Of a stretch of DNA of 64,000 nt, positions 5,366-54,180 are shown piece by piece. Position 1 is the first letter of the stretch, and every line of letters begins with the position of its first letter. This DNA comes from Syntrophomonadaceae bacterium (lineage in GTDB: Bacteria > Bacillota > Dethiobacteria > DTU022), in NCBI GenBank assembly GCA_007130825.1, contig SLRT01000033.1, forward strand, positions 489 through 64,488, given 5' to 3'. Both the position numbers and the translations under genes were made by a program. A model generated the notes under the pieces. That model did not search any database and was not told the DNA's origin. It worked only from the letters and a program-made list of their open reading frames with translations.

Positions 5366-5513
5366 TACTCTTATCCAGAGTGGAGGAGGGACAGCCCCGA
5401 TGAATCCCGGCAACCGGTTCGTTTGATCACGGTGCTAATTGCTGCGGGGTGGCTAACCTCCCCCCGGGAGATGAGGGGTGCCAGGAAGGCCTCTTGATGT
5501 AGAGGCTTTTTTC
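5366..5513 (+). promoter_or_regulatory. SAM-I riboswitch (S-box) with intrinsic terminator, in the metK leader.
   Basis: CTCTTATCCAGAGTGGAGGAGGGACAGCCCCGATGAATCCCGGCAACC...GGTGCTAATTGCTGC matches the S-box consensus. A terminator hairpin GGCCTCTTGATGTAGAGGC plus TTTTTT lies at 5488-5512. Confidence 0.85.
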
Positions 5514-5753: not shown

Positions 5754-6956
5754 ATGCACCAAAAAAACTATCTATTTTCTTCAGAATCAGTAACCGAGGG
5801 GCATCCGGATAAACTTGCCGACCAGATTTCCGATGCAATTCTCGATGCCATTATGGAGCAGGATCCAAATGGGCGGGTAGCCGCAGAAACAATGCTTACT
5901 ACCGGCTTGGTCCTGGTTTGCGGTGAAATAACCACTGAATGCTATGTTGATATTCCCAAACTGGTCAGGGATAAAGTAAAAGATATCGGCTATACAAGGG
6001 CTAAATATGGTTTTGACGGTGACACCTGCGCGGTGCTTACTTCGATCGATGAGCAGTCACCGGATATTGCCCAGGGTGTTAATGAAGCTTATGAAGTCAG
6101 GAGTAAAAAACAAAAAGATCAGTATGACCTTGTCGGGGCCGGTGATCAGGGGATTATGTTCGGATATGCCTGCGAAGAAACTCCTGAATTGATGCCGATG
6201 CCAATTGCGTTGGCCCATAAGATGGCACAAAGACTGTCCGAGGTGCGCAAAAAAGAAATACTCGACTACTTAAGGCCGGACGGTAAAACCCAGGTCACTG
6301 TGGTCTATAAAAATGGAGAACCTGCCTACCTGGAAAATGTCGTGGTCGCCGCGCACCACAGCGATGAAGTTTCCCTGGAGCAAATAGAAAAGGACCTCGT
6401 TGAACATGTTGTCCGCAAGATCGTTCCTGAGGATCTGATCGTACCTGAAACCCGTTTTTTAATTAATCCGACCGGTCGTTTTGTAGTTGGCGGTCCGCAG
6501 GGTGATGCCGGCCTGACCGGACGAAAAACGATCGTCGATACATATGGTGGTTACGCAGCCCACGGTGGAGGAGCTTTTTCCGGGAAAGATCCGACTAAGG
6601 TCGACCGTTCTGCATCTTATGCGGCCCGTTATGTGGCTAAGAATATAGTGGCCGCCGGCCTGGCCTCCCGGTGCCAGTTTCAACTTGCTTATGCAATCGG
6701 CGTAGCTCACCCCGTTTCTATGATGATTGAAACTTACGATACGGAAAAAGTACCGGTCAGCGTTATTGAAGAAATGGTCAATAAGCATTTTGACCTGCGG
6801 CCGGCTGCGATTATTGACAATCTGAATTTGCGCCGTCCGATTTATCAGCAACTGGCTGCATACGGCCATTTTGGCCGTCCTGAATTAGATTTGCCCTGGG
6901 AAAGGCTGGATAAAGTAGAACAGCTTAGGGAAGCCCTTTCAACCAAGAAATCTTAA
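5754..6956 (+). CDS. metK: S-adenosylmethionine synthetase.
   Basis: [50 protein letters not shown]. Confidence 0.95.
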
Positions 6957-15247: not shown

Positions 15248-16370
15248 ATGTTGAAAGAATTACGTGAAGAACTGGCTGTTCAAAAGAAAAGGTTCGAGGA
15301 AATGAGGGTTTCTCTTTGAATATGATTCAAAGCTCAAAATCCTGCAAGAGGTAGAAGCCAGGGCTAACGAACCGGGATTTTGGGAAGACAGCACCCGGGC
15401 CCGGAATTACTTAAAAAAACAAGGTAAATTAAGGGAACAGCTCCGTCCGCTGCAGGAACTGGAGAATATGATCGAAGAAACCGAGGTTTATCTGGAGTTG
15501 GCCGGCGAGGATGCTCTTGATGAGCATGAAGCAGTCAATGAAGCAAATCCGATCCTGGAAGAGATCAAACAGCGGCTTGACAAGATGGAACTGGAAACCC
15601 TGCTCGGGGGCGACTACGATTTTTGTGATTCGATAATTTCGCTTCATCCCGGAGCAGGGGGGTTGGAATCACAGGACTGGGCCGAGATGCTGTTGCGTAT
15701 GTACAACCGGTGGTGTGAGCAAAATGGCTACCAGGTCGAACTTGTAGATCTACTGGCCGATGATGAGGCCGGGATCAAAAGCGCCACGATAATTATTCGC
15801 GGGCATGCCGCATATGGTTATCTCCAGGCTGAAAAAGGTGTGCACCGGTTAATACGCATTTCTCCTTATGATACCTCCAAGCGGCGCCACACCTCCTTTG
15901 CCTCTGTAGATGTTATACCCGAGGTTGAAGAAGAAGAGTTTATTGTCAACTCCGATGATATAAAGGTTGACACATTCCGGGCCAGTGGAGCCGGAGGCCA
16001 GCATGTTAATAAAACAGATTCGGCGGTGCGGATTACCCATATCCCGACCGGGATCGTGGTCACTTGTCAGAATGATCGTTCCCAGCACAGTAATCGAACG
16101 CAGGCCCTGCGGGTGTTGCAGGCAAAGCTGGCTGAATTAACACGCCGGGAACAGGCTGAAGAGATTAGCGCCGAGCGTGGCCAACAAAGAGAAATTGCCT
16201 GGGGCAGTCAAATTCGCACCTATATTTTTCATCCTTTTACCCTGGTCAAAGACCACCGGACCGGAATGGAAGTCGGCCAGGTGGAAGCAGTGATGAATGG
16301 GATGCTCGATCCCTTTATTGATGCTTTTCTGCGCTGGAAAGTTCGCGGAAAAAATCCTCTTAAAAAATAG
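15248..16370 (+). CDS. prfB: Peptide chain release factor 2, with a programmed +1 frameshift at CTT TGA (15314-15319).
   Basis: Frame 1 encodes MLKELREELAVQKKRFEEMRVSL, then an in-frame TGA preceded by the SD-like AGGG. The +1 frame continues FEYDSKLKILQEVEARANEPGFWED... into the 15468 ORF, which carries the SPF and GGQ motifs. Confidence 0.9.
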
Positions 16371-44073: not shown

Positions 44074-44424
44074 GGGGGCGTAAGGATTCGACGAGGGTTG
44101 TGGAAGCAGAAGTGGCAAGCCCAGGACCATGCCCTGGATAAAACATGGAACGGCTATAAACGCCAAACCTAATTACGCACTCGCTGCTTAAATAAGCAGC
44201 GCATCTCTCCTTTCCCTGGCCGGGGGAAAGGTAAGGGGTGTCAAAAAACCGGCCTACCAAAGCAGCGGTTGTCTCTCCGCTGTTTTGGGAAATTTAAAGG
44301 GACTGGCGCTCAAAGATCTTGTTTCGGGGAGCTTTGGGCGCGAGAAACAAAACCGGAACTAAGCTTGTAGAAACTTCTGCAGCCGGGCCCTCGGACGCGG
44401 GTTCGATTCCCGCCGCCTCCACCA
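44074..44424 (+). ncRNA. ssrA: Transfer-messenger RNA (tmRNA, SsrA).
   Basis: 5' GGGGGCGTAAGGATTCGACG and 3' GGTTCGATTCCCGCCGCCTCCACCA form the tRNA-Ala-like domain with a G3-U pair. The internal tag ORF ends ...PNYALAA-TAA. It lies immediately downstream of smpB. Confidence 0.9.
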
Positions 44425-44696: not shown

Positions 44697-46118
44697 ATGA
44701 ATATATGTAAATCCAGGCACCCTTTGAGCATTATCCTGGTGGTGGTTATGGTAATAGCCCTGGGTGTCATGCTTTCTGCTTGTGATGGCGGTGCCGATGA
44801 CGTCGAGGGCGCCATAAACATTCCCGATGACTATTCGACCATTCAAGGAGCAATTGATGCCGCAGAAGAGGGCGATGTAATCGTGGTCAGCCCCGGAACA
44901 TACAGGGAAAATATCAATTTTGGCGGAAAGAATATAACTTTGCGCAGTACTGATCCGGAGGATCCGGAAGTCAGGGAGCAGACAGTGATTGACGGCGGCA
45001 GAACCGGTTCGGTGGTTGTCTTTGAAAATGGAGAAGGTGAAGAAGCGGTTATATCAGGCTTTACCATAACCGGCGGGGGTGGAAACCCGGAAACACTGGA
45101 GTTTGAAATTGAAGGTGAAGTCCGGGAAGAGGCTGCTAAATATGGTGGTGGAATGATTATCTTAAACGACAGTACTCCCACCGTTAAAAATAATTTTTTT
45201 GTCAACAACGTTGCGGAGCGGGGCGGCGGAATAATGATTCATGATTCCTCACCGCTTATCAGCAATAATATGATTAATGGCAATACCTCTACCGGTGGCG
45301 GCGGTGGGATATTTATTGCTCATTCGCCTGCTGTCAGTATTATTGATAATGATATTTCTAGAAATATAGCTCAACGCAGCGGCGGGGGAATTGCTATCAG
45401 CGGTGAGGGAGAGGAGCCCTCAAACTTCGAGGGCAACAACATTTCCGAGAATCGTGCTCAAAACGGCGGTGGCTTTTCTATTTTCGAAGCCAACCCGAAT
45501 ATAAATAACAACAATATCCTTAATAATGATTCTTCTCAAACAGGCGGGGGAATTTTTATGATGAAAGCGTCTCCGGTAATTACCGGAAATGATCTGAGTG
45601 ACAATCAATCTGATTACCGGGGTGGAGGAGTTGCCGTTTCTTTTGAATCTTCACCGGTGCTTGAAGATAATATTATTATCGGTAACAATGCTGATAATGC
45701 CGGAGGCGGATTATTAATAAATATTAATTCCACCCCGCGGTTAGAAAGAAATGTAATTTCTGACAACCGGTCCCGTAACGGTGGCGGTTTTTTGATAAGT
45801 GACGGATCGACCCCGGAGCTGGTTGATAATGAAATTACAAACAACAACGCGGAAGGTAATGGAGCCGGAATTTATGTTACGGCCTCGGCGCCGGTTATCG
45901 AGGCTAATTCTATAAGCAATAATGATGCCAGAGGTGATGGTGGAGGTATCTATGCCGTTAACGAATCAACTGTGCTCGTCACCAACAATCTTTTTGAAGG
46001 TAACCGCTCCCGTGAAGGGGCGGCAATGCATTCATCTGAAGGCGCAATCCTGGAACTAAACGATCCGGACGACAATACATACGAAGACAATGCTCCTGAT
46101 GATGTCTATGAGGAATAA
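44697..46118 (+). CDS. Lipoprotein with parallel beta-helix (PbH1/NosD-like) repeats.
   Basis: Signal peptide with lipobox LSAC, many degenerate repeats of the type NxAxxGGGI, RBS GGAGG. Confidence 0.75.
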   Translation: MNICKSRHPLSIILVVVMVIALGVMLSACDGGADDVEGAINIPDDYSTIQGAIDAAEEGDVIVVSPGTYRENINFGGKNITLRSTDPEDPEVREQTVIDGGRTGSVVVFENGEGEEAVISGFTITGGGGNPETLEFEIEGEVREEAAKYGGGMIILNDSTPTVKNNFFVNNVAERGGGIMIHDSSPLISNNMINGNTSTGGGGGIFIAHSPAVSIIDNDISRNIAQRSGGGIAISGEGEEPSNFEGNNISENRAQNGGGFSIFEANPNINNNNILNNDSSQTGGGIFMMKASPVITGNDLSDNQSDYRGGGVAVSFESSPVLEDNIIIGNNADNAGGGLLININSTPRLERNVISDNRSRNGGGFLISDGSTPELVDNEITNNNAEGNGAGIYVTASAPVIEANSISNNDARGDGGGIYAVNESTVLVTNNLFEGNRSREGAAMHSSEGAILELNDPDDNTYEDNAPDDVYEE

Positions 46119-46373: not shown

Positions 46374-49130
46374 ATGTCTGCAGAGTCGCCTATGGAGGGT
46401 ATGAATTTGGCGGGTAAAGTGTCTGGCAAGGGAAAAAAGAAAAAGCAGGTTGGCGCAGCAGTAAAAAATGATAATACCAAAAATGTTCGGCGAGGCCGGT
46501 CAGAAAGCATAAACGGCATGCGGCCAAAGGTTGAAAAAGCAGCCCTGGCAATAATGCTTGTCCTGATTGCGCTGTTATTGCTGGTTCCGCCCTTTCAACG
46601 TGGTATATTTTTTCCTCGTGAACTGTTACTGGCCAATATAGCGATATTTGGCCTGTTGATTGTTTGGGGCATTTTTCGCTTGTTTAGAAACGAAAAAAAA
46701 GTTATTGGTTCCCCCCTGGATATCTGCTTGCTGGTTTTGCTTTTTGCTTACGTGGTTTCTTTTTTTGGTTTGGCTCACCAACGTGATGCGCTTGAAGAAA
46801 CTCTGAAGATCGCATCGTACCTGGTTGTATACGTGGTAACTGTCGATATTTGTCGTTATTTTAAGTTTTCTTTGTATAAACCGAACTTGAGAGCAAATAT
46901 TGATCAGGCATATAAAAACCCTGATCATAATCTCCGGCCGGGAATACATATTGTCTTACACATTTTTTTAATTGCCGCAACCGTTGTTACTCTGGCCAGT
47001 CTTGGTGCAGCTTCCGGATTTTTGGAATTCCCCGGGGCTTACGTGATCAATCGGATCTCTTCACCGATGGGTTATGCAAATACTGCAGCCGCATACATGA
47101 TGGCCGCCTACCTGTTTACGCTTGCTCTTGCGCCCCTGTATAGTAAATGGCAAAAGGTATTTTACCTTGCACCTGCTGTTTTGATGCTGCTTACAGTTAT
47201 TTTAACTTTTTCACGCGGCGCCTGGTTGCTTTTGGCGCCTTTGTCCCTGCTGCTGGTTTTGGTTACCGCTCCCGGAGAAAGACTGCGTTCAGTTTGTTAT
47301 CTTCTGGTAACCGGGGCGGTAGCAGTTCCGGGGGCATTTCTGGTGGATCCCTTTTTCAGAGAGGACCAACCGTTCCAGGCCTGGCTGTTAATTGCGGCTG
47401 TAGTTGTTATGGTTGTCCTTTTGGGATTGCTGGCAGAATTATATCTTAGCCAAAGTCGCAGATTACGCATTTCATTTGCAGGAGCCGGAGCAGCCGTAAT
47501 TATACTGGCTGTTATGATCACTATTGTTATACCTGCGGTAGGACCGGTTCATCTTGAAAGAACTGCACAGGAGCCGGATGAACACCAAAACGTTGAACAG
47601 CATCTAGAGAACATCACCCCCGGAGAATCATATCAGCTGACACTGGAGGTTAACGCTGAAAAAGCCGTCCTGCCGGGGACTGAAGATCCTGATTATGTCT
47701 GGGGTTTAAGAGTTGTTGGAAGCTCTCCTGAGGAGGACAGCGTTAGACTGGTTAATCACCGCGGTGATACGACAGAGGGCTGGGAAGAAAAGACTTTTAC
47801 ATTCCGAACTGATGAGAAGATGAGCCGCCTTGAAGTTCAGATTTTTAACCGTTATTCGGGGACTTCTGTCACTGCCCGAGATGTTATCCTCAGCGCAGCG
47901 GGTGAAGAAGAAAAGCTGGACTTTTTCCTGCACCGTGCTTTGCCGGAACGGTTGTATAACCGAATTATTTCCGGTTCTCTCGATCGGAACATAGACCGGC
48001 GGGTTGAACTGTATGGTGACGCCGTTAAAATAATAAGAGATTACCCGGTTACGGGTACCGGCGGCGGCGGATGGAACGCCCTCTATCGCAGTTACCAGGA
48101 TCAACCATACAGTTCCAGGGAAGTACACAACCACTATTTACAGGTTTGGGTTGAAGCCGGGTTACTCGGGTTTTTAGCTTTTACCGGGATCTGGATCAGT
48201 TTCGCTGCGGCCTTTATCCGAAACTGCATCAAGCAAAGAACATCTCACCGGGCCTGGCAATTCTGGGCGGCCTCCTTTATTCCGGTTGCCGCCCTGGGGG
48301 CACACAGCATTATCGATTGGAATTTTTCCATGGCTGCTGTGGGGATCGTTTTGTTTGTTTTGCTCGGCGCCGGCCGCAGCCTTGATGACAGCAATTGGTT
48401 CGGCCGGTTTCAAGGTGAAAGTGAAGGAGGAGGCAAACGCGCTTCGTATGTCGGAATTGCCGGGATTATTGTCGGATCGTTACTGTTTATTTTTACCATC
48501 ATGCTGCTTTACGGTTTGGATGCTACCGGGCGTTCGCAGGAGCTTATGGAGCGGAGTAATGTAGGAGAGGCCAAGGAAGAAATGCAAAAAGCCATGCAGG
48601 CGGATCCTTTTCGTTCAGACAACTACCATAACCTGAGTGTAATAATTGAAAATCGGGCGCATCAGACAGGATCGCCGGCCGATATTGAAAAAATGATTTC
48701 CCTGGCCGAACGGGCTTATGAACTTGAACCTTATGATCCGCAATATGTTGTCCGTTACGGCAGTTTACTTATACGCCATGTCGAAATTGAAAAGGGTATC
48801 GGGATTATCGATCGGATCACCGACCTGCGTCCTTTTAGGGAAAGCAGTTACCTGGAACCGGCTTCTATCCGTTTACAAATTGCCGAATTTTACCTGGAAA
48901 ACAACAACCGGCTTTTAGCGGAAAGGTTCCTTAACGAGATCCTGGAACTTGAGCAGGTGATGAAAGAAAATTATGGTGACAGTGAACCCCTGGCATTCTT
49001 TTTGGGCCGGGCCCATTATTTACTGGGAGATTTCAGGTCCGCAGCGCATTATTATGAAAAAGTTGAGGAGAAAGATGATTACTACGATGAAGCCCAAAGT
49101 GATCTTGAAGAAATTCGAACTGAAGAGTAA
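46374..49130 (+). CDS. Large polytopic membrane protein with an O-antigen ligase/Wzy_C-like domain and C-terminal TPR repeats. The true start may be internal, at about 46518.
   Basis: TFSRGAWLLLAPLSL is a Wzy_C-type motif. There are about 12 TM helices and a C-terminal TPR-like region. The N-terminal 48 aa are low-complexity and Lys-rich. Confidence 0.7.
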   Translation: MSAESPMEGMNLAGKVSGKGKKKKQVGAAVKNDNTKNVRRGRSESINGMRPKVEKAALAIMLVLIALLLLVPPFQRGIFFPRELLLANIAIFGLLIVWGIFRLFRNEKKVIGSPLDICLLVLLFAYVVSFFGLAHQRDALEETLKIASYLVVYVVTVDICRYFKFSLYKPNLRANIDQAYKNPDHNLRPGIHIVLHIFLIAATVVTLASLGAASGFLEFPGAYVINRISSPMGYANTAAAYMMAAYLFTLALAPLYSKWQKVFYLAPAVLMLLTVILTFSRGAWLLLAPLSLLLVLVTAPGERLRSVCYLLVTGAVAVPGAFLVDPFFREDQPFQAWLLIAAVVVMVVLLGLLAELYLSQSRRLRISFAGAGAAVIILAVMITIVIPAVGPVHLERTAQEPDEHQNVEQHLENITPGESYQLTLEVNAEKAVLPGTEDPDYVWGLRVVGSSPEEDSVRLVNHRGDTTEGWEEKTFTFRTDEKMSRLEVQIFNRYSGTSVTARDVILSAAGEEEKLDFFLHRALPERLYNRIISGSLDRNIDRRVELYGDAVKIIRDYPVTGTGGGGWNALYRSYQDQPYSSREVHNHYLQVWVEAGLLGFLAFTGIWISFAAAFIRNCIKQRTSHRAWQFWAASFIPVAALGAHSIIDWNFSMAAVGIVLFVLLGAGRSLDDSNWFGRFQGESEGGGKRASYVGIAGIIVGSLLFIFTIMLLYGLDATGRSQELMERSNVGEAKEEMQKAMQADPFRSDNYHNLSVIIENRAHQTGSPADIEKMISLAERAYELEPYDPQYVVRYGSLLIRHVEIEKGIGIIDRITDLRPFRESSYLEPASIRLQIAEFYLENNNRLLAERFLNEILELEQVMKENYGDSEPLAFFLGRAHYLLGDFRSAAHYYEKVEEKDDYYDEAQSDLEEIRTEE

Positions 49131-49209
49131 TACTCCCGAAAGCTTAGCCAGGGATCATTATATTGACGAAATGATCTCAAAAACAGCACAGTTATCACGG
49201 GTACAGGTT

Positions 49210-50022
49210 ATGTTAAAAGGGTTGTTTGCGCTTTCAACTTGTTTCCTGATCCTGATCCCGTTGCTTGTTGCCGCCGGTTGCAATGCCGACCGGTCTAACG
49301 CCTTTAGTTCTGAAAATGGCGAAGCAGACTATAAAAATGGAAAGGACGTCAATTTCATGGAAGAAAATATTATTTTAGATGAATCAAAACCCTTGCTCGA
49401 TCAGAATATACCAAAACACCTGGAAACTGCTACTTTGGCCACGGGCTGATTCTGGGGCCCTGATGCCCGGCTCGGGCAAATGGAAGGTGTTTACAGGACC
49501 CGGGTTGGTTATGGCGGAGGCAGCCTGGATAATCCCACTTACCGCAATTTGGGTGATCATACCGAGGTTTTTCAGATCGATTATGATCCGCAGCATTTAT
49601 CTTACGAAGATATCTTACAGCTGTTTTGGGAAAATCACGATCCGGCCGCAAAGATCTGGTCCCGGCAGTACATGGCCATTATATTTTTCCACAACGCTGA
49701 GCAGGAAAAAGCGGCGCGTCGCAGCAAAGAAAAAGTCGAACAGCAAGTAGGTTCCACTATTTATACCGAGGTGCAGCCCTATACCAAATTTTACCTGGCT
49801 GAAGATTACCATCAAAAATATTACCTGCAAAATGTACCGGAGCTTGCCGGGGAAATTAAAGCTTACTATCCGGAATTCAGCGATTTTGTCAATTCAACTG
49901 TCGCTGCCCGGCTTAATGGTTTAGTTGGCGGTTACGGAGATGCTGCCCTGCTGGAGAAAGAGCTTGACAGCTACGGCCTTTCTTCCCGTGGACGGGAACT
50001 GCTGCAGGATATCGTATATTAA
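49210..50022 (+). CDS. msrA: Peptide methionine sulfoxide reductase MsrA, selenocysteine-containing (UGA at 49447-49449), with an N-terminal lipoprotein-type signal peptide.
   Basis: Translation across the TGA reads ETATLATG-U-FWGPDARLGQMEGVYRTRVGYGGG...GDHTEVFQIDYDP...LFWENHDP, so the MsrA catalytic GCFWG motif has TGA at the Cys position. A hairpin GCCCG-GCT-CGGGC lies 15 nt downstream. The N-terminus is MLKGLFALSTCFLILIPLLVAAGC. Confidence 0.8.
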
Positions 50023-50115: not shown

Positions 50116-50144
50116 TTGACAATTAATAAATGGTTAGCTATAGT
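50116..50144 (+). promoter_or_regulatory. Sigma-A promoter for tRNA-Val (TTGACA-17-TATAGT).
   Basis: Consensus -35 at 50116-50121 and -10 at 50139-50144, about 45 nt upstream of the tRNA. Confidence 0.45.
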
Positions 50145-50187: not shown

Positions 50188-50262
50188 GGGGACGTAGCTC
50201 AGTGGGAGAGCGCTTGATTCACATTCAAGAGGCCGTGGGTTCAAAACCCTCCGTCCCCACCA
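50188..50262 (+). tRNA. tRNA-Val (anticodon CAC).
   Basis: Manual cloverleaf: acceptor GGGGACG/CGTCCCC, anticodon stem CTTGA/TCAAG with loop TTCACAT, T-loop TTCAAAA, encoded CCA. There is one U-U mismatch in the T-stem. Confidence 0.75.
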
Positions 50263-53550: not shown

Positions 53551-54180
53551 TTGAAAGCAATTAAATTGACCATGTTGCTGTTTATTTCACTTCTGGTTGT
53601 AATTGTTTTTGCTGCAGCCGGCTGCAGCCCTGATCGGGAACCAGACGAGGAAGTTATTGATCTAGAAGTTACTGAGCAAATGGAGCCGCCAGATCAAGAG
53701 GAAGTTAAAGCCGAAAAGCCGATGCTCACTGCAAATTACTTCTGGCCCTGGATCAGCCATGGCCAGATTGTGCTTTCCAGCGGTGAAATAATTGACGGCC
53801 CCAGTTTTTATGAATCAGACATGGGCTTTGTGGCTGAATTTACCGAGGAGTATGATTACAGCGGGCGGTTAGTCTGGTTGGTCGAAAAGACAGATGTTTT
53901 TGATCTTCAATGGGCAACGCTTTCTTTTAATGTCGATTATTATGAGCAGAATGAAAAGGCGTTTGATTTTTACCTGACATTCAAGATTGACGATCTTGAG
54001 CCCGAACCGGGTGATAAAGGTGTTCAGGAATTTGCAGTGGATCTCGTCGAGGAAGAAAGAGGTTTTGTTGTCGCTATCGACAATATCATTCTGGGCAAAG
54101 AGCAGGAAAGCACTTTTGCGACTGACCCCATTAATTATGTGGCCCTGGAAATAGAAGTAAAAGTAGTTGATCAACCTTAA
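53551..54180 (+). CDS. Hypothetical lipoprotein.
   Basis: Signal peptide with lipobox AAAGC, an acidic linker, RBS GAGGGAG. Confidence 0.6.

Follow-up and report, generated by a model that had tools for sequence, protein, structure and literature searches.

A probable selenoprotein methionine sulfoxide reductase A with a predicted lipoprotein leader and a conserved candidate internal start

How should an enzyme gene be read when a stop codon stands in place of the codon for its catalytic cysteine? This question is raised by a locus in 64,000 nucleotides of DNA from a Syntrophomonadaceae bacterium (assembly GCA_007130825.1, contig SLRT01000033.1, positions 489 to 64,488; hereafter the window). 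A frame of the forward strand, opening at ATG 49210 with the leader MLKGLFALSTCFLILIPLLVAAGC and closing with TAA at 50020-50022 as translated, carries the active-site motif of methionine sulfoxide reductase A (MsrA) as GGC TGA TTC TGG GGC (49444-49458), TGA being in-frame codon 80. The mechanical list of open reading frames (ORFs) accordingly holds msrA cut in two at this codon, as 48973-49449 and 49480-50022. A previous reading made from the letters alone (the sequence-only reading) had recognized the motif GCFWG interrupted by UGA and the split of the gene, and its coordinates for both are right. The best overall explanation, which we hold to be reasonably probable, is a selenocysteine (Sec)-containing MsrA of the Clostridium oremlandii type, whose UGA would be recoded with the help of a selenocysteine insertion sequence (SECIS) and whose translation would begin at two functional starts.

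The identity of the encoded enzyme was established by profile and structure searches in which the TGA (U) was written as Cys. The translated frame matches the Pfam family PMSR (PF01625) with 144.1 bits against a cut-off of 23.7 (5.3e-42) and the TIGR00401 msrA model with 127.4 bits against a cut-off of 108.1. Its C-terminal part matches PF20939 (MsrA_helical) with 31.6 bits against a cut-off of 23.7 (1.4e-7), a domain entitled 'Selenoprotein methionine sulfoxide reductase A, helical domain'. The best matches in the PDB (7C13, 4U66 and 4LWJ-M; E ~2e-55) align residues 70-259 of the predicted protein with chain residues 6-195. Two of these structures, 4LWJ and 4U66, represent the MsrA of C. oremlandii (CoMsrA), and the TGA codon aligns with Cys16 of CoMsrA chains in which Sec had been changed to Cys. 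This sequence match is decisive for the predicted MsrA fold, and the alignment to characterized enzymes that had been advised thus leads to a natively Sec-containing protein as the closest relative of solved structure.

The motif G-U-F-W-G occupies residues 79-83 and is accompanied by VGYGGG, GDHTE and EDYHQKY, all in columns that are invariant in the family alignments. We take GY.GG, DH.E and DYHQ.Y to supply the sulfoxide-binding Tyr, Glu and Tyr of MsrA, and G-C/U-F-W-G to supply the catalytic nucleophile. The frame 3' of the TGA, which was already described as conserved MsrA sequence in the sequence-only reading, contains RVGYGGGSLDNPTYRNLGDHTEVFQIDYDPQHLSYEDILQLFWENHDP and RVGYGGGSLDNPTYRNLGDHTEVFQIDYDP, followed by LFWENHDP. 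Past the lipobox residue Cys24 the protein has no Cys, which makes it a 1-Cys type enzyme without a resolving cysteine. A segment directly preceding the Sec motif recurs across related loci in the form PP[IL]D-x(2,3)-P-x(2,3)-ETATFA[LM]G, and its PPID part is without counterpart in the aligned CoMsrA chain.

Is the TGA peculiar to this sequence, or is it a property of the family? The equivalent codon was inspected in 80 related loci from species-representative genomes and in 80 metagenome loci retrieved by a Cys-type query, with the motif recognizable in 76 loci of each sample. Pooled, TGA occupies the catalytic codon in 143 of 152 loci, and TGC or TGT occupies it in the other nine (four of them in the genome sample). 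The reading frame of the relatives is conserved both 5' and 3' of the TGA. The loci with TGA are labeled as Syntrophomonadaceae, other Bacillota including the cultured Desulforamulus aeronauticus, Dehalococcoidia, Anaerolineae, Thermodesulfobacteriota or 'delta proteobacterium', Thermoleophilia and Candidatus Uabimicrobium. The same TGA is also present in four independent, near-identical assemblies of the population from which the window comes (including NCBI GCA_003564435.1 and a JGI sample labeled SL_8KL_010_SED). Elsewhere in the window, TGA serves as the ordinary stop of about 10 other ORFs, so the standard genetic code applies; the conservation of the TGA together with these ordinary stops excludes, for practical purposes, that the codon is an error of sequencing, a nonsense mutation or part of an alternative code. 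The other TGA-split pairs of ORFs in the window are all antisense to real genes. The occurrence of Sec and Cys in one alignment column, the retention of TGA across phyla and the native Sec of the best PDB relative support the proposal, already made from the letters, that this UGA specifies the catalytic Sec. Insertion of Sec at UGA 49447 itself is what we infer from these comparisons.

Searches of protein databases returned many 180-residue matches that start at a Met just past the TGA, revealing the same split in other genomes, as well as full-length forms with Cys and others in which W occupies the Sec position. The latter motif (G-W-FWG) occurs in public entries P0032, P0055, P0079, P0101, P0115 and P0127. 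The DNA behind P0101 (locus L085:219-1001) carries TGA, and the W of this entry therefore stems from gene calling under a code in which TGA means Trp. Other database entries of the family are 180-residue pieces without the active site or 124-residue orphan N-terminal pieces.

The sequence-only reading had also pointed to a small hairpin beyond the UGA as a SECIS. Its core, GCCCG-GCT-CGGGC (49465-49477), starts 15 nt past the TGA. The model of the bacterial SECIS (bSECIS) specifies a loop of 3-9 nt on an upper stem of 4-16 bp, a G in loop positions 1-2 (mostly G[G/U]), a distance of 16-37 nt from UGA to loop, and an MFE (minimum free energy) of at most -7.5 kcal/mol (PMC13188914), and a structural paper describes a stem of 6-8 bp whose loop carries a conserved G ~20 nt past the UGA (PMC4605307). 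The hairpin of the window conforms to all four constraints. Its loop (GCU) has 3 nt, its stem has 6 bp (the 5 bp of GCCCG/CGGGC plus a U-A pair), the first loop base is G 49470, the spacing is 20 nt (49450-49469), which also fits the '~20 nt' description, and the local MFE is -11.4 kcal/mol (49459-49484). The base following the loop G is C, which departs from the 'mostly G[G/U]' sub-pattern. A search of Rfam gave no match to this region at the gathering threshold or at E <= 10, and no curated bacterial SECIS model of this type was found there.

Comparison of 139 distinct Sec-type sequences reveals that the hairpin is a regular feature of the family. All 139 place the loop 18-20 nt from the UGA, 110 of them have GUU as the loop, and 96% fold with an MFE <= -7.5 kcal/mol (family mean -11.0). 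The stem is formed by the codons of a D-A/S-R-F-G peptide, and the third positions of these codons have an entropy of 0.11-0.54 bit compared with ~1.9 bit at flanking four-fold codons. GCC or TCC is used in 137/139 sequences, CGG for 105 of 114 Arg codons and GGG in 127/139, whereas control Gly codons are evenly spread and all four bases occur in the neighboring Gly, Pro and Val codons. Base-pairing is maintained by compensatory changes: pair 23-27 is G-C in 112 sequences, A-U in 16 and mismatched in 9, with Arg CGG giving way to Gln CAG together with a synonymous change of Phe TTC to TTT; pair 19-31 is U-A in 63 and G-C in 50, as Ala GCC...CAR alternates with Ser UCC...AGY; and pair 18-32 is C-G in 63 and U-A in 39. 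In a 73-sequence alignment the covariation score is 0.242, compared with 0.110 after shuffling (reached in 0 of 500 shuffles) and <=0.083 for slid partners. When the window sequence was synonymously re-coded with window codon usage, the observed stability was reached in 3.5% of trials (p = 0.035). These findings place the hairpin, the predicted SECIS, under selection at the RNA level.

Two other structures were set aside. The longer lower stem of the MFE structure is not conserved, and the RNAalifold structure of a 48-column alignment (-2.2 kcal/mol) is weak and implausibly pairs the UGA itself; the counts of base pairs favor the hairpin named above. All five core pairs are present in 111/139 Sec forms and in 1/9 Cys forms, a contrast that is suggestive only, as this control is weak and comprises nine sequences from mostly close relatives. 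Four Cys forms (L030, L056, L086 and L088) keep most of the hairpin (GAC UCC C.. UUC GGG AGU C) ~20 nt past their TGC. This partial hairpin in the Cys members nearest to the Sec forms looks like a fossil SECIS left by a recent switch from Sec to Cys.

Two other explanations of the TGA can be judged against these data. Gene callers report an ORF of 124 or 158 residues and another of 180 residues, and the window copy of msrA contains two unusual substitutions, as might be the case if the locus were a pseudogene or two unrelated ORFs with TGA as a nonsense mutation or an error for TGC or TGT. However, the same TGA stands in four independent assemblies and in the large majority of related loci from several phyla, conservation at the protein level is clear in both halves, and the 180-residue ORF by itself would be without the catalytic residue. 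With the hairpin under RNA-level selection as well, this reading is effectively refuted, and we regard it as extremely improbable. The W seen in several family entries, such as P0101 and P0127, could instead mean that UGA is read as a standard amino acid, be it Trp or Gly in an alternative code or Cys from a misloaded tRNA. We give this idea hardly any weight either: the W entries are artifacts of gene calling, given the TGA in the DNA of P0101; ordinary genes of the window end in TGA; Trp or Gly as the nucleophile would leave the enzyme inactive; members without TGA have Cys as the homologous residue and CoMsrA has Sec; and the SECIS-type hairpin is conserved. We conclude that the locus is very probably a genuine selenoprotein MsrA gene with a functional-type SECIS.

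If the long frame is translated from ATG 49210, where would its product reside? A lipoprotein signal of the PS51257 type in PROSITE has a positively charged n-region, an uncharged h-region and a lipobox of the form [LVI..][ASTVI..][GAS]-C, with the Cys at position 15-35. The leader reads MLK-GLFALSTCFLILIPLLV-AAG-C24 and passes a rule of this type, with K3 in the n-region, an uncharged h-region, [AGS]-C and the Cys at position 24. To count such leaders we used 62 TGA loci with at least 45 open upstream codons, setting aside five copies of the gene of the window. The strict lipobox rule is passed in 32 of the 62, a strongly hydrophobic segment is present in 26 more, and four have neither. Many of the 26 have boxes resembling L-x-G-C and some have ends resembling those cut by signal peptidase I. 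Ten further loci have short N-termini, three of them cut by contig ends.

That these leaders are coding is indicated by comparison of the three frames in 95 loci that also have the internal start described below. Frame 0 upstream stays open over a median of 65 codons versus 6 and 19 in the other frames, contains a hydrophobic segment in 87% of loci versus 8-15%, and contains a lipobox pattern in 57/95 loci versus 1 and 0. Upstream starts across the family also have better Shine-Dalgarno (SD) pairing than background (-7.29 versus -4.67 ± 0.22 kcal/mol). The long form is thus likely to be an exported, membrane-tethered (lipo)protein, and in the case of the window its export and its lipidation at Cys24 are predicted from the leader. 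The lipid-anchored MsrA of the sequence-only reading is therefore upheld insofar as the lipobox rule is passed and most relatives have in-frame leaders, although it describes the long isoform alone and overlooks an internal SD-ATG.

This internal start, an SD-like run GGAAAGGA followed by an ATG, lies between the lipobox and the conserved pre-catalytic segment. Its duplex with the anti-SD sequence is worth -9.7 kcal/mol, compared with -3.9 at ATG 49210, -3.1 at the in-frame ATG 49171, where the SD is poor, and -8.6 at ATG 49075. Most relatives likewise have an in-frame ATG 25-35 codons before Sec, at the same place between lipobox and conserved segment, with a strong SD (AAGGAGG, GAGGAGG or GGAAAGGA) upstream. 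When the loci are aligned on this ATG, the mean SD energy is flat except for a sharp peak 8-16 nt upstream. The family mean of the best SD energy is -9.34 kcal/mol, compared with -4.16 ± 0.30 for equal numbers of random codons from the same linkers, and a generic anti-SD gives -7.02 versus -3.37 ± 0.24. For comparison, the average is -3.0 at Met codons within the domain and -7.1 at presumed gene starts of the window.

The nucleotides of the SD are also constrained at synonymous sites. In the clade of the window, the ATG is found at -29 to -32 codons from Sec in 29/34 members, and the SD codons are fixed, with GGA in 14/14 Gly codons (background 19%) and AAG or GAG in 22/24 Lys/Glu codons (background 35%). 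The position of the ATG coincides with the N-terminus of naturally short, leaderless members, for example that of Desulforamulus aeronauticus (L046). A strong internal SD-ATG is present in 85 of 122 leader-bearing loci, and 31 lack any internal ATG. Because the SD of the internal ATG is far better than that of ATG 49210, the gene probably also, or here even mainly, gives rise to a cytoplasmic form. The simplest reading is that one gene yields two proteoforms, an exported lipoprotein and a cytoplasmic enzyme, and we consider it somewhat favored that both isoforms are made.

The mechanism that we propose for this gene is as follows. The apical loop of the hairpin, through its G ~20 nt past the UGA, would bring in SelB with Sec-tRNA(Sec) when the UGA is in the ribosomal A site, and UGA 49447 would be recoded as Sec80 in a SelB-dependent manner. 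On damaged proteins, Sec80 would attack the Met-S-O sulfoxide and become a selenenic acid, to be resolved by an external thiol reductant, as for the 1-Cys enzyme CoMsrA. Initiation at ATG 49210 (or, with lower likelihood, at 49171 or 49075) would produce a precursor with a lipoprotein signal, which would be exported by the Sec translocon, processed by Lgt and Lsp with lipidation on Cys24 and cleavage, and tethered in its mature form, by an acidic linker of ~40 residues, to the cytoplasmic membrane on its outer face. Initiation at the internal SD-ATG would instead produce the signal-less enzyme, which would stay in the cytoplasm and be recycled in the glutaredoxin manner. A single selenoprotein gene could in this way serve both compartments. 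The insertion of Sec, the chemistry, the export and the recycling in this scheme are taken over from what is established for the families concerned.

A 1-Sec enzyme that is exported without a resolving Cys or a linked thioredoxin/CcdA partner would have to be recycled by a reductant new to Msr enzymes, for which candidates are an unlinked thiol-disulfide lipoprotein or the environmental sulfide and thiols of sulfidic sediments. The wider proposal, that one gene serves two compartments by a dual-start layout shared by ~70% of the leader-bearing members of a large, mostly uncultured clade (Bacillota, Chloroflexota and others) and that its exported form depends on such a new reductant, is more tentative, and we place its chances slightly under even.

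Either product might alternatively be the only one. If the gene encodes a lipoprotein alone, the internal SD-like run and ATG would be left over from an ancestral short gene or would result from a linker that is rich in Glu, Lys and Gly codons and contains a conserved Met. The 31 of 122 leader-bearing relatives without any internal ATG imply that the exported form can stand alone, random codons of the purine-rich linker average -4.2 kcal/mol with 21% reaching -6, and many pipelines call Cys homologues from the signal peptide. Yet the SD signal is specific in position (8-16 nt before the ATG), stands ~17 standard deviations above the linker background, is kept at the synonymous Gly and Lys/Glu sites mentioned above, and persists although the amino acids of the linker vary freely, all of which makes this explanation unlikely. 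If, conversely, ATG 49357 is the real start and the stretch upstream of it is translated negligibly or not at all, the enzyme would be like CoMsrA. In keeping with this, the internal start has by far the best SD of the nearby starts in the window, those of ATG 49210 and 49171 being poor; the NCBI annotation starts some Cys homologues (P0011 and P0074, 214 residues) at the equivalent Met; the sole known reductant of this enzyme type is a cytoplasmic glutaredoxin; and short leaderless members exist. An untranslated leader, however, would not stay open for so many codons or retain its hydrophobic segment and its lipobox in frame 0 alone, nor would upstream starts surpass the SD background, and we judge a purely cytoplasmic enzyme to be quite unlikely.

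Several observations nevertheless weigh against a Sec-containing MsrA made from two starts. No tRNA-Sec, selA, selB, selD or second selenoprotein gene was found in the 64-kb window, so that the Sec trait of this genome is something we infer. The folding check suggested earlier returns the local, bSECIS-compliant hairpin, but single-sequence folds of 60 or 101 nt are no better than shuffles (z ~0) in this GC-rich stretch. The window copy of msrA carries C49471 where the four near-identical assemblies and 137/139 relatives have T. Over ~5-6 kb the window differs from these assemblies at only 4-7 positions, two of them in msrA. This C turns Phe into Leu in DARFG (F in 137/139) and changes the loop from GUU to GCU, which is unique among the 139; with only the loop G kept and G[G/U] lost, Sec insertion or activity could be weakened in the window sequence. 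Either an error of assembly or a genuine variant that inserts Sec less well could account for C49471. The second of the two differences inside msrA is T49657 (C in the others), which gives the consensus Trp where the other assemblies have Arg.

Other points concern the starts and the fate of the exported form. The SD of ATG 49210 is poor, and a scan just 5' of msrA gave no convincing sigma-70-like promoter. SD-like runs are favored by the abundance of Glu, Lys and Gly codons in the linker; the random-codon control addresses this composition and leaves phylogenetic non-independence in place. A thioredoxin-like or CcdA/DsbD partner was sought in the window and in 1.5-kb flanks of 80 relatives, and none was found. 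As the glutaredoxin of CoMsrA is cytoplasmic, the exported form is left without an evident reductant.

Table 1. Features of the msrA locus in window coordinates.
Feature	Position	Strand	Basis or remark
In-frame ATG far upstream, overlapping the end of the preceding gene	49075..49077	+	good SD, -8.6 kcal/mol; chosen by public gene caller for N-terminal fragment (P0122)
msrA long-form reading frame	49210..50022	+	270 codons + stop, 813 nt, one in-frame UGA read as Sec80; translation, Pfam/NCBIfam, PDB match
Predicted signal peptide of signal peptidase II (SPII) type, MLKGLFALSTCFLILIPLLVAAG-C	49210..49281	+	PS51257-type rule; lipobox VAAGC 49267-49281, Cys24 49279-49281
Acidic, polar linker past lipobox Cys, poorly conserved	49282..49356	+	upstream segments highly variable among relatives
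Internal SD-like run GGAAAGGA, 10 nt 5' of ATG 49357	49339..49346	+	anti-SD duplex -9.7 kcal/mol; family SD peak; synonymous constraint
Conserved internal ATG (Met50), proposed start of signal-less cytoplasmic isoform of 221 residues	49357..49359	+	clade conservation
Pre-catalytic segment P-L-L-D-x-x-I-P-x-x-L-E-T-A-T-L-A-x-G	49390..49443	+	kept in nearly all relatives
MsrA catalytic domain	49426..49836	+	Pfam PMSR, residues 73-209; includes GYGGG, DHTE, EDYHQKY
UGA, predicted Sec codon U80 in G-U-F-W-G, catalytic Cys position	49447..49449	+	TGA in 72/76 genome loci and 71/76 metagenome loci; rest TGC/TGT
Predicted bacterial SECIS hairpin U-GCCCG-[GCU]-CGGGC-A	49464..49478	+	loop G 49470; MFE, covariation, codon constraint, synonymous resampling
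C-terminal helical domain, specific to selenoprotein-type MsrA	49891..50016	+	PF20939, residues 228-269; CoMsrA alignment reaches chain residue 195/209

The features of msrA itself are listed in Table 1. The gene is flanked by a Wzy_C/TPR membrane protein upstream and by tRNA-Val, a PLDc_N peptide and an EamA transporter, with a NosD-like beta-helix lipoprotein and VanY peptidases among the further neighbors. No glutaredoxin gene is present in the window, no terminator was found after msrA, and the gene lacks the linked thioredoxin-fold partner and CcdA/DsbD by which an extracytoplasmic Msr redox module would be recognized. The directly preceding gene (46374-49130) encodes a Wzy_C (O-antigen-ligase-like) membrane protein of 918 residues with C-terminal TPR repeats. 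A Wzy_C-like gene lies beside msrA in 24 Syntrophomonadaceae-type loci, a link that may be functional (envelope) or only phylogenetic. Among the relatives, MsrB is an adjacent or fused partner in 10 loci and PLDc_N a neighbor in 6.

The loci with msrB directly upstream (L030, L035, L054-L056, L059, L061, L062 and L068) are mostly from Dehalococcoidia, and in one further locus (L037:275-928) an MsrB (SelR) domain behind an N-terminal membrane anchor is fused ahead of Sec-MsrA. Judged by their sequences, these fused or adjacent loci look like exported MsrB-MsrA(Sec) modules.

The window as a whole is a housekeeping stretch that includes an S-adenosylmethionine (SAM) riboswitch, smpB, transfer-messenger RNA (tmRNA) and a prfB frameshift site. 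The SAM riboswitch (5368-5477) precedes a metK-like ORF (5754-6956), and the tmRNA (44074-44424, tag AKPNYALAA) lies just past the smpB-like ORF. A sigma-70-like promoter match (11/12) at 50116-50144 precedes tRNA-Val (50188-50262). Two other predicted lipoproteins are encoded in the window, one of 209 residues without a Pfam match (53551-54180) and the 473-residue NosD/beta-helix protein (44697-46118), whose leader ends in GVMLSAC. The release factor 2 gene prfB (15249-16370) contains an apparent classic programmed +1 frameshift at ~15315-15321, where ATG 15249 is followed by GAGGG and then by TCT CTT TGA A, before translation continues in the +1 frame as EYDSKLKILQEVEARANEPGFWED. This is a second TGA recoding event in the window, of an ordinary kind, and the ORF list has only 15468-16370 for this gene.

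Because gene callers split, truncate or mistranslate this family into 180-residue fragments, 124-residue orphan 'lipoproteins' and proteins with W in place of Sec, the annotations of metagenome-assembled genomes largely miss a widespread selenoprotein. The regularity of the hairpin (UGA, 18-20 nt, a GUU loop and a D-A/S-R-F-G stem) offers a simple rule by which the family could be recovered. A predicted exported enzyme for Sec-dependent methionine repair in strict anaerobes leads one to ask how a 1-Sec MsrA could be reduced again outside the cytoplasm, and the conserved internal start is a candidate for dual localization by alternative initiation in bacteria that would parallel mammalian MsrA. 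Nothing in this locus overturns known principles, since extracytoplasmic Msr enzymes are established, as are the recoding mechanism and the enzyme family. What comparison of sequences provides is the identity of the gene, the Sec/Cys pairing, the constraints on the predicted SECIS, and a conserved leader with an internal ribosome-binding site.

How, then, does the gene compare with known systems? Sec-MsrA, with its motif GUFWG, belongs to the prokaryotic selenoprotein families that have been verified by experiment (PMC13188914, PMC9312934), has been listed for Syntrophobacter fumaroxidans (PMC1794560) and has been reported from marine metagenomes (PMC2398784). The window gene thus adds a member to a known family and is no rarity. 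The Sec form is also the majority in its subfamily, with members in Bacillota, Chloroflexota, Thermodesulfobacteriota, Planctomycetota and others, and the earlier statement that Sec-MsrA occurs in only a few Clostridia was overstated. In the papers searched, we found no description of the combined layout, namely a Sec-MsrA with a lipoprotein-type leader that is widespread in uncultured anaerobes, has a conserved internal start and lacks a linked reductant.

The best solved relative is CoMsrA from C. (Alkaliphilus) oremlandii OhILAs (4LWJ, 4LWK, 4LWM and 4U66; ~190 residues aligned). CoMsrA is natively a 209-residue selenoprotein of 1-Cys type that contains no other Cys, its Sec form is 20-fold more active than its Cys form, it is reduced by glutaredoxin and not by thioredoxin, and it has a helical domain that is absent from other MsrA structures (PMC4479559). 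The predicted protein of the window shares with it the Sec in G-U-FWG, the lack of other Cys in the mature domain, the PF20939 helical domain, an RQY loop and a SECIS in the coding region after the UGA. CoMsrA, however, begins 15 residues before its Sec, whereas the window protein is 64 residues longer at the N-terminus, where it has a lipoprotein signal, an acidic linker and a PP[IL]D-type segment, and, unlike CoMsrA, an internal SD-ATG. In addition, CoMsrA is cytoplasmic and glutaredoxin-reduced, whereas the long form of the window protein is predicted to be outside the cell.

The hairpin resembles the fdhF-type bSECIS of Escherichia coli and the consensus model of Zhang and Gladyshev in being located in the coding region just past the UGA, with a small loop that starts with G ~20 nt on. 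It differs in that the family SECIS is very small, with a stem of 5-8 bp and a loop of 3 nt, and is built wholly from the D-A/S-R-F-G codons. The window copy differs from the family in turn by its GCU loop in place of GUU, and no Rfam model covers it.

Extracytoplasmic Msr systems of the Cys type include MsrAB2 of Streptococcus pneumoniae with the Etrx1/2 lipoproteins and CcdA, MsrAB of Streptococcus gordonii, PilB of Neisseria and the periplasmic MsrAB of Haemophilus (PMC3914529, PMC7034828, PMC9404787). The predicted long form is like these in placing a tethered or secreted MsrA activity outside the cytoplasmic membrane, where it would repair envelope proteins. Those enzymes use Cys, are fused to MsrB and/or a thioredoxin domain, and have their electron donors, thioredoxin-like proteins and CcdA/DsbD, encoded alongside, whereas the window gene specifies a stand-alone MsrA with a predicted Sec nucleophile and no linked partner in the window or in the 1.5-kb flanks of its relatives.

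For the two starts, we found no bacterial example described for MsrA or for a selenoprotein. Mammalian MsrA, in comparison, is known to give mitochondrial and cytosolic forms by alternative initiation (PMC1431549), and bacterial pairs of N-terminal proteoforms with different predicted localization are an emerging theme (PMC13515050). The arrangement proposed here is similar to such pairs in having two in-frame starts of which the longer product carries a targeting signal, as judged in this case from conserved features of the sequence.

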